This document shows positions 39,840 through 44,828 of a stretch of 64,000 nucleotides of DNA, in pieces. The stretch comes from Escherichia coli. Its GTDB lineage: Bacteria; Pseudomonadota; Gammaproteobacteria; Enterobacterales; Enterobacteriaceae. The translations under genes were made by a program, and so were the position numbers. The stretch lies in the NCBI RefSeq assembly GCF_003334255.1, contig NZ_QOWU01000013.1; one strand, given 5' to 3'. Positions within the stretch are counted from its first letter, which is position 1; each line of letters starts with the position of its first letter. The notes beneath the pieces were generated by a model. It did not search any database, had not been told where the DNA came from, and saw nothing but the letters and a program-made list of their open reading frames with translations.

Positions 39840-39941
39840 TGTTAGTATTCTAACATCTACTCCGCAACACACTTCGATACACATCACAATTAAGGAAATC
39901 TACTTACAAGTTTGCATCACTGTAATGCGATCTGGTTCAAA
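39840..39941 (-). promoter_or_regulatory. deoP2 region: DeoR operator O2 plus two CRP/CytR target sites
   Basis: O2 TGTTAGTATTCTAACA (39840-39855); CRP-like sites TGTGATGTGTATCGAAGTGTGTT (39866-39888) and TTTGAACCAGATCGCATTACAGTGA (about 39917-39941), both read on the deo strand. Confidence 0.75.
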
Positions 39942-40052
39942 TAATTCACTTTCAAATGAATGCGTCAGTGGTGGCAAACGCATCAGGATCAAAGTGAACA
40001 TCACGAAACTTCTTACAATGGCGCATCACCTTCGGCATAAAAGGAAAAGAAG

Positions 40053-41603
40053 ATGCCCACTTCTCATGAAAATGCACTGCAACAACGTTGCCAGCAAATT
40101 GTCACCAGCCCAGTGCTTAGCCCGGAGCAGAAGCGCCATTTTCTGGCACTGGAAGCAGAAAACAATCTGCCTTACCCACAGCTTCCTGCCGAAGCCCGCC
40201 GCGCGCTGGATGAAGGTGTAATCTGCGATATGTTTGAAGGTCATGCGCCGTACAAACCGCGCTATGTCTTACCCGATTACGCCCGTTTTCTGGCGAACGG
40301 TTCCGAATGGCTGGAGCTGGAAGGCGCGAAAGATCTTGATGACGCACTCTCTCTGCTGACCATTCTTTACCACCACGTACCGTCGGTCACATCGATGCCG
40401 GTCTACCTGGGGCAACTGGATGCGTTGTTGCAACCGTATGTTAGAATTCTAACACAAGACGAGATCGATGTTCGAATAAAACGTTTCTGGCGTTACCTCG
40501 ACAGAACCCTGCCAGACGCCTTTATGCACGCCAATATCGGCCCGTCTGATTCGCCCATTACCCGCGCGATCTTACGTGCAGATGCAGAGTTGAAGCAGGT
40601 TTCACCGAACCTGACCTTTATCTACGATCCTGAAATCACCCCTGATGACCTGCTGCTGGAAGTGGCGAAGAACATCTGTGAATGTAGCAAACCGCACATC
40701 GCCAACGGTCCGGTGCATGATAAAATTTTCACAAAAGGGGGCTACGGGATTGTGAGCTGTTACAACTCACTGCCGCTGGCGGGTGGTGGCAGCACGCTGG
40801 TACGCCTTAACCTGAAAGCCATTGCCGAGCGCAGCGAATCGCTGGATGACTTCTTTACGCGCACTCTACCGCACTACTGCCAGCAGCAGATCGCCATCAT
40901 CGATGCGCGGTGTGAATTCCTCTATCAACAATCACACTTCTTTGAGAATAGCTTCCTGGTGAAAGAAGGGCTGATTAACCCTGAACGTTTTGTGCCAATG
41001 TTTGGCATGTATGGGCTGGCGGAAGCGGTTAACTTGCTGTGTGAAAAAGAAGGGATTGCCGCGCGCTACGGTAAAGAAGCCGCCGCAAATGAAGTAGGTT
41101 ATCGCATCAGCGCGCAACTGGCGGAGTTTGTCGCCAATACCCCCGTGAAATATGGCTGGCAAAAACGCGCCATGTTACACGCACAGTCGGGGATCAGTTC
41201 CGATATCGGCACCACGCCGGGCGCGCGTTTGCCGTATGGCGATGAGCCAGATCCGATCACCCATCTGCAAACTGTCGCCCCGCATCATGCTTATTATTAT
41301 TCCGGCATCAGCGACATTCTGACGCTCGACGAAACCATCAAACGTAACCCGCAGGCACTGGTACAGCTTTGCCTCGGTGCCTTTAAAGCCGGAATGCGTG
41401 AATTTACCGCCAATGTCAGCGGTAACGATCTGGTTCGCGTTACCGGTTATATGGTGCGTTTGTCGGATTTAGAAAAATATCGCGCCGAAGGTTCACGCAC
41501 CAACACCACCTGGCTGGGCGAAGAAGCCGCACGCAACACTCGTATTCTGGAACGCCAGCCGCGCGTGATAAGCCATGAACAGCAGATGCGCTTTAGTCAG
41601 TAA
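40053..41603 (+). CDS. yjjI: Glycyl-radical-enzyme-like protein YjjI, 516 aa
   Basis: Full-length ORF; near the C-terminus a RVTGY motif resembling the glycyl-radical signature RV[ST]GY; followed by an overlapping activase gene. Confidence 0.85.
40439..40454. promoter_or_regulatory. DeoR operator O1 (deoP1) inside the yjjI coding sequence
   Basis: Perfect 16-bp palindrome TGTTAGAATTCTAACA, exactly 599 bp from O2. Confidence 0.7.
40718..40733. promoter_or_regulatory. Candidate distal DeoR operator OE
   Basis: TGATAAAATTTTCACA, 12/16 match to the operator palindrome, 279 bp beyond O1; tentative. Confidence 0.4.
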
Positions 41604-42438
41604 GATTATCCCCTTCTCCTGCGTTGACGGGCCAGGCAGTCGTCTGGCTCTGTTTTTGCAGGGCTGCAATCTGCGCTGCAAAAACTGTCACAATCCGTGG
41701 ACGATGGGACGTTGCAATGACTGTGGGGAGTGCGTGCCACAGTGTCCGCATCAGGCGTTGCAGATTGTTGACGGCAAAGTGGTGTGGAACGCTGTGGTTT
41801 GCGAGCAGTGTGATACCTGCCTGAAGAGGTGTCCGCAACATGCCACGCCCATGGCGCAATCCATGAGCGTGGACGAAGTGCTTAGCCATGTCCGCAAAGC
41901 AGTGCTGTTTATCGAAGGGATAACGGTGAGTGGCGGTGAAGCCACGACCCAGCTGCCGTTTGTGGTGGCGCTGTTTACTGCTATCAAAAACGATCCGCAA
42001 CTGCGCCATCTCACCTGTCTGGTGGACAGTAACGGCATGTTGAGCGAAACCGGCTGGGAAAAATTGCTCCCGGTGTGCGACGGCGCAATGCTCGATCTCA
42101 AAGCGTGGGGGAGCGAATGTCATCAACAACTCACCGGACGCGATAATCAGCAGATTAAGCGCAGCATCTATTTGCTGGCAGAGCGCGGCAAGCTGGCGGA
42201 ACTGCGTTTGCTGGTGATCCCTGGCCAGGTGGATTATTTGCAACACATCGAAGAACTGGCGGCGTTTATCAAGGGACTCGGCGATGTTCCGGTACGCCTG
42301 AACGCGTTTCATGCCCACGGCGTGTATGGCGAGGCGCAAAGCTGGGCGAGCGCCACGCCGGAAGACGTTGAGCCGTTGGCTGATGCGTTAAAGGTGCGCG
42401 GGGTGAGCCGGTTGATATTTCCGGCGCTCTATTTGTGA
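41575..42438 (+). CDS. yjjW: Glycyl-radical enzyme activating protein (radical SAM) YjjW, 287 aa
   Basis: Radical-SAM CxxxCxxC (CNLRCKNC) plus two ferredoxin-like Cys clusters ([24 protein letters not shown]); overlaps the yjjI 3' end by 29 bp. Confidence 0.85.
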
Positions 42439-42440
42439 CA

Positions 42441-42862
42441 TGCCGGATACGGCCTACGGTTCGGCACAGACTTGTAGGCCTGATAAGACGCGTCAAGCGT
42501 CGCATCAGGCATTGTGCGCCAACTGCCGGATGCGGCGCGAACGCCTTATCCGGCCTACGGTTCGGCACAAACCTGTAGGCATGATAAGACGCGACAAGCG
42601 TCGCATCAGGCATTATGCGCCGACTGCCGGATGCGGCGTGAACGCCTTATCCGGCCTACGGTTCGGCACAGACTTGTAGGCATGATAAGACGCGACAAGC
42701 GTCGCATCAGGCATTGTGCGCCAACTGCCGGATGCGGCGTGAACGCCTTATCCGGCCTACGGTTCGGCACAAACCTGTAGGCATGATAAGACGCGTTAAG
42801 CGTCGCATCAGGCATTGTGCGCCAACTGCCGGATGCGGCGTGAACGCCTTATCCGGCCTACG
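42441..42862. repeat. REP/BIME cluster: about four tandem 101-bp units
   Basis: Motif CTACGGTTCGGCACA recurs at 42455, 42556, 42657 and 42758 (period 101 bp); each unit holds two inverted REP palindromes. Confidence 0.9.
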
Positions 42863-43637
42863 GCACGTTAAACAACGTATACGTGTTATTAAGCAACGCT
42901 TGCGCAATCTCATCCGCCGGTTCCCGGCGCAACTCGCAAAGCACGGCAAACACACGGGCAGCCTGCTCCGGGCGGTTAGGCTGCCCCTGAAAACCGTTGA
43001 GCGGCATATCCGGCGCGTCGGTTTCCAGCAATAACGATGCCAGCGGTAATTTTGCGATGACATCGCGGGTTTTACTGGCGCGTGGATAGGTGATAGTACC
43101 GCCTACGCCAATTTTGTAGCCCAGCTGTACAAACCGTTCGGCCTGTTGCAGGCTGCCGGAAAAACCGTGAACCACGCCAGTGCGCGGTAAATCGTGGCGT
43201 TTAAGATGCATCGCCAGTTTGTCGTGCGTGCGCCGTGAATGCAGGATCACCGGCAGATCGTAGCGTTTCGCCAGTTTCAGTTGTTCGTCGAGTAACCACT
43301 GCTGCCTCTCAAATTGCGGATCGTCGCCAAAGAGATCCAGACCGATCTCCCCCACCGCCACCACCTTCGCCGGACGCCTTTCCAGCGCCTGCTGTAGCTG
43401 CTCAAGAGACACATCGCTATGTTTTTCCAACATACCAGGATGCAAGCCCAATGCGGCATACAGCGGTTGATAATTTTCCGCTAATGCCAACACACGGGCA
43501 AAATTTTCCGCCTCTGTTGCCGGAACAATGATCTTGCCTACGCCCGCTTGTGCCGCGCGTTGCAGGCTGGCCTCTTCATCGCCACTAAACGGCGGGAAAT
43601 CAAAATGGCAGTGGGTGTCGATAAAACGGCAAATCAA
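42858..43637 (-). CDS. yjjV: TatD-family metal-dependent hydrolase YjjV, 259 aa
   Basis: MICRFIDTHCHFDFPPF (HxH metal-binding start); the last codons and TAG stop lie inside the terminal REP unit. Confidence 0.88.
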   Translation of the reverse strand: MICRFIDTHCHFDFPPFSGDEEASLQRAAQAGVGKIIVPATEAENFARVLALAENYQPLYAALGLHPGMLEKHSDVSLEQLQQALERRPAKVVAVGEIGLDLFGDDPQFERQQWLLDEQLKLAKRYDLPVILHSRRTHDKLAMHLKRHDLPRTGVVHGFSGSLQQAERFVQLGYKIGVGGTITYPRASKTRDVIAKLPLASLLLETDAPDMPLNGFQGQPNRPEQAARVFAVLCELRREPADEIAQALLNNTYTLFNVP

Positions 43638-44707
43638 GCCAGATCCTCATTGTTAAATGTCGGGTCGTTCGCCTGCGGAGCGTCGCTCACTTCGGCAACC
43701 AGCGTATCGTTGGCGACTGGCGCAGGCGGAATGACAATCGATTCCGGCGTCACCACTGGCACCAGATGGCGGGTAAGCGGCGCTTTTTCAGTTAATAGCT
43801 TGCCAACCGTGGCGAGGAAATAACGACCGCATAAACGCCCAAGTTTATAGTCTTCACGCAGCGCCGGAATCCGACTGCCAAGCGCGATACTATGTAATGG
43901 CTTCGGCGGATAAATTTCGAATATCCGCAGCTTGCCCGGTGGTTTCTCAATAAATTGCTGAATGTCACGATAGCTGGTTTCATGATGCTGCACCAGATTG
44001 ACCAGCGGCTGCAGGCTACTGTCACCCAGCCAGCGTTCCATGCGTTTGAACCACTGCGGCGTGTAGTACATTTGTGACGGCACAGTGCGAATGACGACCA
44101 ACGTTTTAGCGCCCTGCCTTGCCGCCTCTTTAACCGGAATCGCATCACTGATCCCGCCATCCAGGTAGTTAATGCCTTCCAGCGACACTCCGCTACGATA
44201 AAAGCCAGGTATCGCACTGGAGGCGCGAATCACATCCAGCCAGTTTTGTTTGGTTGGTAAAAAGTAATTCGGCGCGTAGTCATCCTGACGACAGGCGCAC
44301 ATATAAAACGATTTGCCGCTGTCAAACAACCGCGCGGCGGTATCCATTTGCAACGGCATCTGGCTTGCAGTGGCCTCCACCAGCCAGTCGAGATCGATAA
44401 GATTTCCTCCACGGACAAAGCGCAATGGATCGAAAAATTCGCGTTTTGTGGTATAGCGCATGATGACTTTGCGCGCGTAACCGGGCTGATTGCAGATAAA
44501 CGCCGAGAGGTTCTGCGCCCCGGCAGATGTGCCGAGATAAAGATCGAAAGGATTAAACTGCGCGCGCATAAACTCATCCAGCACGCCAGCCGTGAAAATT
44601 CCACGCTGTCCGCCGCCTTCGCACACCAGAGCTATTCGTCCAGGCTGGAACGGCCTTAGCGACAACGGCGCAATATTACCAAGCGTTACAGGTATTCGCT
44701 GCCCCAC
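43634..44707 (-). CDS. yjjU: Patatin-like phospholipase YjjU, 357 aa
   Basis: Patatin motifs GGGQRG and GTSAGA; GTG start at 44705-44707. The ORF-track start is 12 codons upstream. Confidence 0.8.
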   Translation of the reverse strand: MGQRIPVTLGNIAPLSLRPFQPGRIALVCEGGGQRGIFTAGVLDEFMRAQFNPFDLYLGTSAGAQNLSAFICNQPGYARKVIMRYTTKREFFDPLRFVRGGNLIDLDWLVEATASQMPLQMDTAARLFDSGKSFYMCACRQDDYAPNYFLPTKQNWLDVIRASSAIPGFYRSGVSLEGINYLDGGISDAIPVKEAARQGAKTLVVIRTVPSQMYYTPQWFKRMERWLGDSSLQPLVNLVQHHETSYRDIQQFIEKPPGKLRIFEIYPPKPLHSIALGSRIPALREDYKLGRLCGRYFLATVGKLLTEKAPLTRHLVPVVTPESIVIPPAPVANDTLVAEVSDAPQANDPTFNNEDLA

Positions 44708-44828
44708 CTCTGCCTTCCTGTTTTTGTTGTGAAAGAATGACAAAGTAACGCAATTTATTATTCGCTAAAACCGCAAAAGCCAGTCCGCTGGACTGGCTTT
44801 GGATAAAATTTTCTTAATGGTCTGAAAT

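Follow-up and report, generated by a model that had tools for sequence, protein, structure and literature searches.

YjjI and YjjW of Escherichia coli: a predicted minimal glycyl radical enzyme, its activase and a recurrent association with nucleoside genes

What is the substrate of the enzyme encoded by yjjI, a gene of Escherichia coli that overlaps the activase gene yjjW and lies back to back with the deo operon? Glycyl radical enzymes (GREs) catalyse chemically difficult reactions under anaerobic conditions, and recently discovered classes, such as CutC, HypD and IslA, are important in gut microbial metabolism. Of the glycyl radical enzymes in E. coli K-12, YjjI is to our knowledge the last to lack a substrate; entries of PflD and YbiW with bound sugar-type ligands occur among the structural matches of YjjI in the Protein Data Bank (PDB), and these two enzymes are therefore at least under structural study. 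In this study, the pair was analysed within a stretch of 64,000 nucleotides of E. coli DNA (assembly GCF_003334255.1, contig NZ_QOWU01000013.1), which as a whole is called the window. A preliminary description of this locus had recognized a GRE-like enzyme together with its own radical S-adenosylmethionine (SAM) activase. On balance, we believe that yjjI-yjjW is an anaerobically made two-protein glycyl radical system that acts on a nucleoside-derived substrate.

The enzyme and its activase

The segment 39800–42900 of the window was compared with E. coli K-12 MG1655, to which it is 100% identical, and with complete E. coli genomes, among which the yjjI-yjjW segment was found in 5423 of 5426. 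The features of the gene pair are as follows.

40053–41603, + strand: yjjI coding sequence, YjjI-family glycyl radical enzyme (open reading frame of 516 aa)
40755–40766, + strand: codons of the predicted finger-loop (thiyl radical) cysteine, S235-C236-Y237-N238 (C236 invariant, aligned with C384 of NrdD and C419 of PflB, hairpin tip in the model)
41436–41450, + strand: codons of the predicted glycyl radical loop, R462-V463-T464-G465-Y466 (R462 and G465 invariant in full-length members, aligned with RITGY of NrdD 8p23 and RVSGY of PflB)
41575–41603, + strand: stretch in which the 3′ part of yjjI and the 5′ part of yjjW overlap (29 bp, read from the sequence)
41575–42438, + strand: yjjW coding sequence, radical-SAM activase (open reading frame of 287 aa; TIGR04041, Radical_SAM and Fer4 domains, PflA structures 8fo0 and 3c8f)
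41665–41688, + strand: codons of the radical-SAM [4Fe-4S] motif of YjjW, C31-N-L-R-C35-K-N-C38 (read in translation, aligned with CLMRCLYC of PflA)
41713–41832, + strand: codons of the two ferredoxin-like CX2CX2CX3CP motifs of YjjW, C47–C57 and C76–C86 (read in translation; Fer4_9 and Fer4_7 matches at residues 46–90)

The coordinates of the two reading frames agree with the 29-bp overlap given in the preliminary description. This overlap suggests that the translation of yjjI and yjjW may be coupled, and overlaps of 4–20 bp are also found in three distant relatives. The RVTGY motif that had been noticed near the C-terminus of the 516-residue YjjI occupies residues 462–466, 51 residues from the end, and the CNLRCKNC motif and the two ferredoxin-like cysteine clusters that had been described for YjjW can all be read in its translation.

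YjjI scores 787 bits against TIGR04040 (cut-off 498), with 497 of 497 model positions covered, and 732 bits (E = 2.8e-220) against PF11230, formerly DUF3029. YjjI is a member of the TIGR04040/PF11230 family, which takes its name from the E. coli K-12 genes present in this window, and YjjW scores 396 bits against TIGR04041 (cut-off 250). The TIGR04040 and TIGR04041 families are defined by sequence ('hypoth_equivalog') and have no characterised member and no solved structure. The YjjI family is small, with 541 representatives of 50%-identity clusters at E <= 0.001 among 1.84 billion proteins, and its full-length members have 490–532 aa. The K-12 reference annotation uses the names 'DUF3029 domain-containing protein YjjI' and 'putative glycyl-radical enzyme activating enzyme YjjW', and the RefSeq pipeline the names 'YjjI family glycine radical enzyme' and 'YjjW family glycine radical enzyme activase'. 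Because of the family-model scores and the RefSeq naming, the earlier reading of the pair coincides with the standard annotation; the identity is not new and is already standard in NCBIfam, Pfam and RefSeq.

Further support for this identity comes from comparison with known structures. A PDB search with the single YjjI sequence returned chance matches only (E about 1), and a search with a profile of 22 family members returned glycyl radical enzymes exclusively, including NrdD (8p23, E = 2e-4), several enzymes of the pyruvate formate-lyase (PFL) type, YbiW and HPAD. In these profile alignments, RVTGYLV of YjjI stands opposite RITGYLV of NrdD, and vvSCynsL stands opposite the Cys-Cys loop AIACCVSSM of the PFL-type enzymes. 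A comparison by hhalign with a five-sequence NrdD profile gave a probability of 96.2% (E = 2.6e-9) over 388 columns and placed C236 opposite NrdD C384; the comparison with PflB gave a probability of 64% and spanned both loops (SCYN with CCVS, RVTGY with RVSGY), with C236 aligned to C419. C236 is the only residue, and hence the only cysteine, that is invariant across all 37 aligned sequences. Invariant or nearly so in the full-length members are G465, R462, E305, R70, Y71, H159, N186, K213, N218, N238, R251, Q378, D384 and R392.

In the structural model of YjjI, C236 is placed at the tip of a hairpin formed by strands 231–234 and 238–241, and G465 at the tip of a second hairpin formed by strands 460–462 and 467–469. 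As modelled, these two hairpin tips would correspond to the finger loop and the Gly loop of known enzymes. The model superposes on glycyl radical enzymes at 2.6–2.9 A, with about 450 residues aligned with catalytic members, and it contains the ten-stranded alpha/beta barrel that these enzymes have in common with ribonucleotide reductases. The family models, the profile matches in the PDB and the loop alignments all uphold the reading of the preliminary description, and we hold the identity of the pair as a glycyl radical enzyme plus its activase with high confidence.

The cysteines of YjjW are spaced as C31-x3-C35-x2-C38, C47-x2-C50-x2-C53-x3-C57-P and C76-x2-C79-x2-C82-x3-C86-P, and the GGE motif for SAM is found as VSGGEAT at residues 118–124. 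Therefore, all the activase features looked for are present: the N-terminal CX3CX2C, the GGE motif and two ferredoxin-like clusters in the insert. The domain composition is Radical_SAM plus a dicluster ferredoxin (Fer4_9 and Fer4_7), the crystal structures of PflA (8fo0, 3c8f) align with YjjW, and the next-best family models after TIGR04041 are those of the hydroxyproline dehydratase activase, the PFLE_PFLC subfamily and PflA. Homology shows YjjW to be a radical-SAM activase of the PflC/eliminase type, with one predicted SAM-cleaving cluster and two predicted auxiliary clusters. An activase of the NrdG type was also considered and rejected, because the NrdG models give only 48–64 bits, below their cut-offs of 126–131. 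The activases of an archaeal lineage (loci L084–L086) and of loci L089–L091 have 247–250 aa and no detected ferredoxin-like insert; therefore, not every member of the YjjW family has the two auxiliary clusters.

Within yjjW, a binding site for sigma-54, IS57, has been reported as strong, intragenic and in sense orientation (PMC4591121). It corresponds to CTGGCTCTGTTTTTGCA at 41644–41660 (+ strand), which overlaps a terminator-like hairpin found by our scan.

Nucleoside genes beside the pair and anaerobic expression

The gene neighbourhoods of the family give an indication of what YjjI may act on. Gammaproteobacterial loci (n = 80) were found with a 13-sequence YjjI alignment, which returned only Gammaproteobacteria, and distant relatives were taken from individual loci and from a metagenome scan with a distant-clade alignment. 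The distant members include one archaeon and Breznakia (Erysipelotrichia), and the closest named relatives of the distant proteins are those of Clostridium, Lachnospiraceae, Fusobacterium and Cetobacterium. In 79 of the 80 gammaproteobacterial loci and in most of the others, yjjW adjoins yjjI. In the Enterobacteriaceae and Hafnia, the pair lies back to back (divergent) with deoCABD, and in Gilliamella it is the last element of the co-directional series deoD-nupG-add-cpdB-cdd-deoA-(cpdB paralogue)-yjjI-yjjW. The distant loci with nucleoside genes include L159 and the following gene orders.

Breznakia: yeiL-like regulator, then deoD-deoB-yjjI-yjjW-bmp-ABC-perm-perm-cdd-pdp
L171: deoD-bmp-yjjI-yjjW-ABC-perm-perm-deoC-add-deoB
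L154: udk-bmp-yjjI-yjjW-ABC-perm-perm-add
L099: yjjI-yjjW-nupC-deoD
L111: bmp-yjjI-yjjW-ABC-perm-perm-PfkB-PsuG
L094: nucleoside hydrolase, ADP-ribosylglycohydrolase, PfkB kinase, PNP, phosphodiesterase-like, yjjI-yjjW, major facilitator superfamily (MFS) transporter, bmp, ABC

The genes near the pair thus cover both import (Bmp-type ATP-binding cassette (ABC), NupC and NupG transporters) and breakdown (DeoD/PNP, DeoA/Pdp, DeoB, DeoC, Cdd, Add, Udk and nucleoside hydrolases). After dereplication at 80% YjjI identity, 62 clusters remained, and the 57 with at least four neighbouring genes were counted. A core gene of nucleoside uptake or catabolism lies within six genes of the pair in 19 of these 57 lineages and within three genes in 17, compared with an expectation for a random locus of about 5%, which is a rough estimate based on how many such genes E. 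coli has and not a computed control. Nucleoside genes make up 13–16% of the neighbours at distances 1–5, 8% at distance 6 and 0% at distances 7–8, and 65 of the 75 nucleoside-gene neighbours share the strand of yjjI. Across the remainder of the 64-kb window, the nucleoside marker panel has no matches outside deo. Because nucleoside operons recur in about one third of the lineages, the adjacency to deo in E. coli is probably functional. A link of this kind had been drawn earlier by Hu et al. (2009), whose module for nucleotide transport and deoxyribonucleoside degradation contains YjjI (PMC2672614); the present data strengthen it greatly, and we consider a role of YjjI in nucleoside metabolism to be likely.

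Published data place the expression of the pair under anaerobic control. The yjjI operon is directly activated by FNR, with an FNR peak upstream in chromatin immunoprecipitation (ChIP) experiments (PMC3688515), yjjI is marked as FNR-activated in a second study (PMC2634741), and a table of anaerobically regulated genes for Yersinia intermedia includes it (PMC3792023). The candidate promoter elements in the window are as follows.

39979–39992, + strand: putative FNR site CGCATCAGGATCAA, of which only the 3′ half, GGATCAAA (39986–39993), is conserved
40014–40019, + strand: putative −10 hexamer TACAAT of the yjjI promoter (TACAAT, TACACT or TAGAAT in 10 genera, 21–22 bp downstream of GGATCAAA)

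The half-site GGATCAAA is invariant in an alignment of the deoC-yjjI intergenic region from 10 enterobacterial genera. From these elements we infer the yjjI promoter and its transcription start. Given the spacing to the hexamer, GGATCAAA is a putative FNR half-site centred at about −41, the position expected of a class II FNR promoter. A full FNR palindrome, TTGATnnnnATCAA, with up to 2 mismatches was not found upstream of yjjI; its single intergenic match, at 39874, is the CRP/CytR site of deoP2.

Several observations weigh against a nucleoside-acting system. About two thirds of the dereplicated lineages have no nearby nucleoside gene, and these include the Vibrionaceae, Shewanella, Providencia, a Fusobacterium, an archaeon and loci L089–L091. 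Vertical inheritance of operons within the Firmicutes may inflate the count of independent associations, and the Bmp-type transporters may import compounds that are not nucleosides. In E. coli itself, the pair is divergent from deo and is not co-transcribed with it, and antisense transcription from deoP1 through the 5′ part of yjjI, considered below, could make the expression of the two operons antagonistic rather than coordinated. Neither the K-12 reference annotation nor the searchable literature assigns a substrate, as the preliminary description had said, and neither a biochemical characterisation of YjjI or YjjW nor a report of a stable glycyl radical on YjjI was found in the searchable literature (subscription-journal papers not covered). 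Finally, yjjI co-clusters with nar, nir and other genes of anaerobic respiration (PMC3228777, PMC6643234).

These observations raise the alternative that the nucleoside context is incidental or lineage-specific and that YjjI acts on an unrelated anaerobic small molecule, for example in nitrate/nitrite respiration or fermentation. The co-clustering with nar and nir, the listing of yjjI alongside adhE and the hyb genes in a differential-expression table for ygfI (dhfA) (PMC9068703), the majority of lineages without nucleoside neighbours and the Vibrionaceae, where only a LysR regulator accompanies the pair, are all consistent with this alternative. However, common FNR control accounts for the co-expression, and for this reason a role of yjjI in nitrogen assimilation (PMC3228777) was also set aside. 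Moreover, the Pfam and NCBIfam scans found no alternative functional theme among the recurrent neighbours, the others being AlkD-like, GATase1-like, HATPase/STAS, M20 deacylase, YczE and housekeeping genes. The nucleoside association also decays with gene distance, and it is found in several gene orders and with three transporter families in Gammaproteobacteria, Erysipelotrichia and metagenomic lineages with Clostridia- or Fusobacteria-like YjjI. We therefore regard an incidental context as unlikely and prefer a nucleoside-derived substrate.

In the Vibrionaceae and Shewanella, no deo genes are found beside yjjI-yjjW, and a convergent LysR regulator flanks the pair. Such a regulator of ~300–340 aa is close to yjjW, usually convergent and just downstream, in 12 loci (L061–L082) without a deo or nucleoside gene. 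It may be dedicated to the pair, and its ligand could in that case reveal the substrate.

Further arrangements were seen in the metagenomic loci. In six of them (L133–L138), yjjW is followed, ~700–2400 bp downstream (for example, L134:6924-7589), by a small membrane-like open reading frame (135 aa, no family match) and by an AlkD-like gene annotated as a 'DNA alkylation repair enzyme' (PF08713, E = 7e-65); the operon also contains nucleoside hydrolases. This neighbourhood could be a sign that the substrates are modified or damaged nucleosides. Two contig arrangements occur in one metagenomic lineage (L100–L105, L112 versus L099, L109, L118), in which fba, pgk and a YczE-like gene flank the locus: either yjjI-yjjW-nupC-deoD or yjjI directly followed by a convergent recQ without an adjacent activase. 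The recQ-type contigs could represent a deletion variant, or their activase could be encoded elsewhere.

Differences from known enzymes and a proposed chemistry

By both structure and profile, the closest relative of YjjI is class III ribonucleotide reductase. In E. coli NrdD, C175 is the second active-site cysteine and Met382 is associated with formate-dependent reduction; the residue numbers were confirmed in our alignment. In YjjI, C175 is replaced by the invariant Tyr71, N174 stands opposite R70, and both M382 and N405 fall in gaps. The alignment starts at residue 146 of NrdD and residue 44 of YjjI, so that residues 1–145 of NrdD, the N-terminal ATP-cone region, have no counterpart, and Pfam gives no ATP-cone match in YjjI. 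The C-terminal zinc ribbon of NrdD, with four cysteines before the glycyl loop, is a gap in the YjjI profile, and residues 440–516 of YjjI contain no CX2C pair. The Pfam NRDD model reaches only E = 0.6 on YjjI, at residues 248–360. YjjI is about 200 aa shorter than NrdD, its activase is PflC-like with two extra ferredoxin-type clusters whereas that of NrdD is NrdG-like, and E. coli has a separate nrdDG besides yjjI-yjjW. Therefore, YjjI is rejected as a canonical class III ribonucleotide reductase by its C175 and M382 positions, zinc ribbon, ATP-cone, family score and activase type alike.

YjjI also differs from the PFL-type enzymes and the eliminases. The Cys-Cys pair C418-C419 of PFL is absent and corresponds to S235-C236 in YjjI. 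The GRE eliminases, such as glycerol dehydratase (GDH), CutC and HypD, have a GCxE motif with a general-base Glu, whereas YjjI has SCYN, with the nearly invariant N238 in place of the Glu; another Glu, E305, is invariant. Because the reducing residues of the ribonucleotide reductases, the Cys pair of PFL and the Glu of GCxE are all missing, YjjI represents a distinct single-cysteine variant of the barrel. The preliminary description was right that YjjI is much shorter than canonical glycyl radical enzymes, with 516 aa against 712 aa in E. coli NrdD and 760 aa in PflB. It is 250–330 aa shorter than the PFL-type enzymes (glycerol/propanediol dehydratase, CutC, HypD, IslA, PflD and YbiW), and it belongs to Pfam family PF11230 in contrast to their PF02901/PF01228. 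Microcompartment genes were never found beside yjjI in the loci examined. Homology and modelling show YjjI as a minimal (516 aa) predicted member of the ribonucleotide reductase/PFL barrel superfamily, closest to class III ribonucleotide reductase.

A mechanism that would be compatible with these features can be outlined. Reduced YjjW would cleave SAM and take hydrogen from G465 of YjjI, the resulting glycyl radical would generate a thiyl radical on C236, and the thiyl radical would abstract a hydrogen atom from the substrate. The substrate would be a nucleoside taken up by the cell, or a pentose or pentose phosphate liberated from it; ribose 1-phosphate and ribose 5-phosphate, which the co-encoded phosphorylases, hydrolases and mutase would make, are candidates. 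A reductase-like core with one conserved cysteine and no reducing residues, in combination with an eliminase-type activase, leads us to favour a redox-neutral radical elimination on the ribosyl 2′,3′-diol. Such an elimination would be equivalent to the first half of the ribonucleotide reductase reaction and would proceed along the lines of the glycyl-radical diol dehydratases. It counts against the proposal that it is based only on similarity of fold and on the one cysteine, and in its specific form this elimination chemistry is rather unlikely to be correct. Somewhat better placed, and nevertheless doubtful, is our tentative proposal that YjjI represents a new functional class of glycyl radical enzyme acting on nucleosides, with a reductase-like barrel lacking the reducing and allosteric parts and a redox-neutral elimination on the ribosyl 2′,3′-diol or a 2′-substituent.

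The same core could be read as that of a true reductase. YjjI would in that case be a stripped-down class III-like enzyme that uses formate or another donor to turn a ribonucleoside or a ribose phosphate into its deoxy counterpart and feeds, for example, DeoC or salvage. Class III ribonucleotide reductase is indeed nearest to YjjI, the neighbours deoC and deoB in E. coli, L159 and L171 handle deoxyribose phosphates, and formate is abundant (in part a matter of general knowledge) under the FNR-controlled conditions in which yjjI is expressed. However, the position of NrdD C175 is taken by an invariant Tyr, M382 and N405 are unaligned, and YjjI has no second conserved cysteine, no C-terminal cysteine pair and no zinc ribbon. 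The PflC/eliminase-type YjjW, on which the NrdG models remain far below their cut-offs, is also at odds with a reductase, which we consider quite improbable.

YjjI could also be seen as a relic that has decayed or is non-catalytic, whether as a pseudoenzyme or as a GrcA-like radical spare part. This view could appeal to its unusual shortness, to the absence of a reported phenotype in the literature searched and to the departure of L460 and T464 from the strict glycyl-radical pattern of PROSITE PS00850, and yet it is scarcely credible, since the full barrel is kept with about 450 residues aligned to catalytic enzymes, the gene is retained in 5423 of 5426 E. coli genomes with dozens of invariant residues across bacteria and archaea, a dedicated activase is nearly always alongside, transcription is regulated, and spare parts of the GrcA type have only about 130 aa.

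For a nucleoside-acting glycyl radical system, the candidate substrates are narrowed from anything to nucleosides and their pentose products, and the substrate question therefore becomes testable with a small panel. What this study adds to the standard annotation is structural support, the exclusion of YjjI from the classes of the canonical reductases, of PFL and of the GCxE eliminases, and a nucleoside link that extends across phyla. If a nucleoside-acting class of glycyl radical enzymes is real, nucleoside carbon would have an anaerobic route in gut and sediment bacteria that was not known before, and YjjI could be a living link from the ribonucleotide reductases to glycyl radical enzymes of the dehydratase type. 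An elimination of the reductase kind, if it took place without reduction, would bear on the relation of the ribonucleotide reductases to the other glycyl radical enzymes.

Regulatory sites of deo and flanking features

The upstream part of yjjI and its coding sequence also carry control sites of the divergent deo operon, none of which has a strand assigned.

39840–39855: DeoR operator O2, TGTTAGTATTCTAACA, between deoC and yjjI (palindrome with one mismatch to the consensus; conserved across enterobacteria)
39873–39888: CRP/CytR site of deoP2, TTCGATACACATCACA, in the deoC-yjjI intergenic region (conserved block)
40439–40454: DeoR operator O1, TGTTAGAATTCTAACA, at yjjI codons 129–134, which marks deoP1 (antisense to yjjI; perfect palindrome, zero mismatches)
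40718–40733: probable DeoR operator OE, TGATAAAATTTTCACA, inside yjjI (weaker site, 279 bp from O1)

The window contains two matches to the DeoR operator consensus, O2 and O1, exactly 599 bp apart, and OE lies 878 bp from O2; in locus L025, the site homologous to OE has 3 mismatches. The O2/O1/OE spacings that Dandanell and Hammer are said to have published in 1985–87 agree with 599 and 279 bp. The preliminary description had stated that the pair shares its upstream region with the deo operators. This is the case for O2, which is intergenic, and it does not apply to O1 and OE, which are located inside the yjjI coding sequence. Each of the 51 loci in which deoC is divergent has O1 at yjjI position +386, and the 29 remaining loci lack it. 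Because O1 tracks the divergent deoC, the yjjI coding sequence doubles as the control region of deoP1. The deoP1 transcripts must run antisense across the first ~390 nt of yjjI and across the yjjI promoter, and DeoR loops would enclose that promoter. A CRP site detected by ChIP sequencing has been assigned to yjjI/deoC (PMC4287617).

One NCBI protein, P0154, carries a YjjI sequence together with an aldolase match. This 574-aa protein, from a 2.9-kb contig, matches YjjI at 100% identity over 91% of the query and has in addition a DeoC/LacD aldolase hit (PF01791). Given the divergent orientation of yjjI and deoC in E. coli, it looks more like an artefact of assembly or gene calling than a real YjjI-DeoC/LacD fusion.

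Downstream of yjjW, the window contains one further feature before the next genes.

42442–42845, no strand: array of four 101-bp repeat units of the repetitive extragenic palindromic/bacterial interspersed mosaic element (REP/BIME) type, between yjjW and the convergent yjjV (three overlapping 202-nt copies, 101-bp spacing, 93–95% identical)

This array gives rise to spurious repetitive open reading frames on both strands. It is followed by yjjV, a TatD-like metal-dependent hydrolase gene, and yjjU, a patatin-like phospholipase gene (42858–44743, − strand), which are convergent to yjjW, an order kept throughout the Enterobacteriaceae. In the distant relative L088, a glycerophosphodiester phosphodiesterase gene and an MFS transporter gene lie downstream of the pair in place of yjjV and yjjU.

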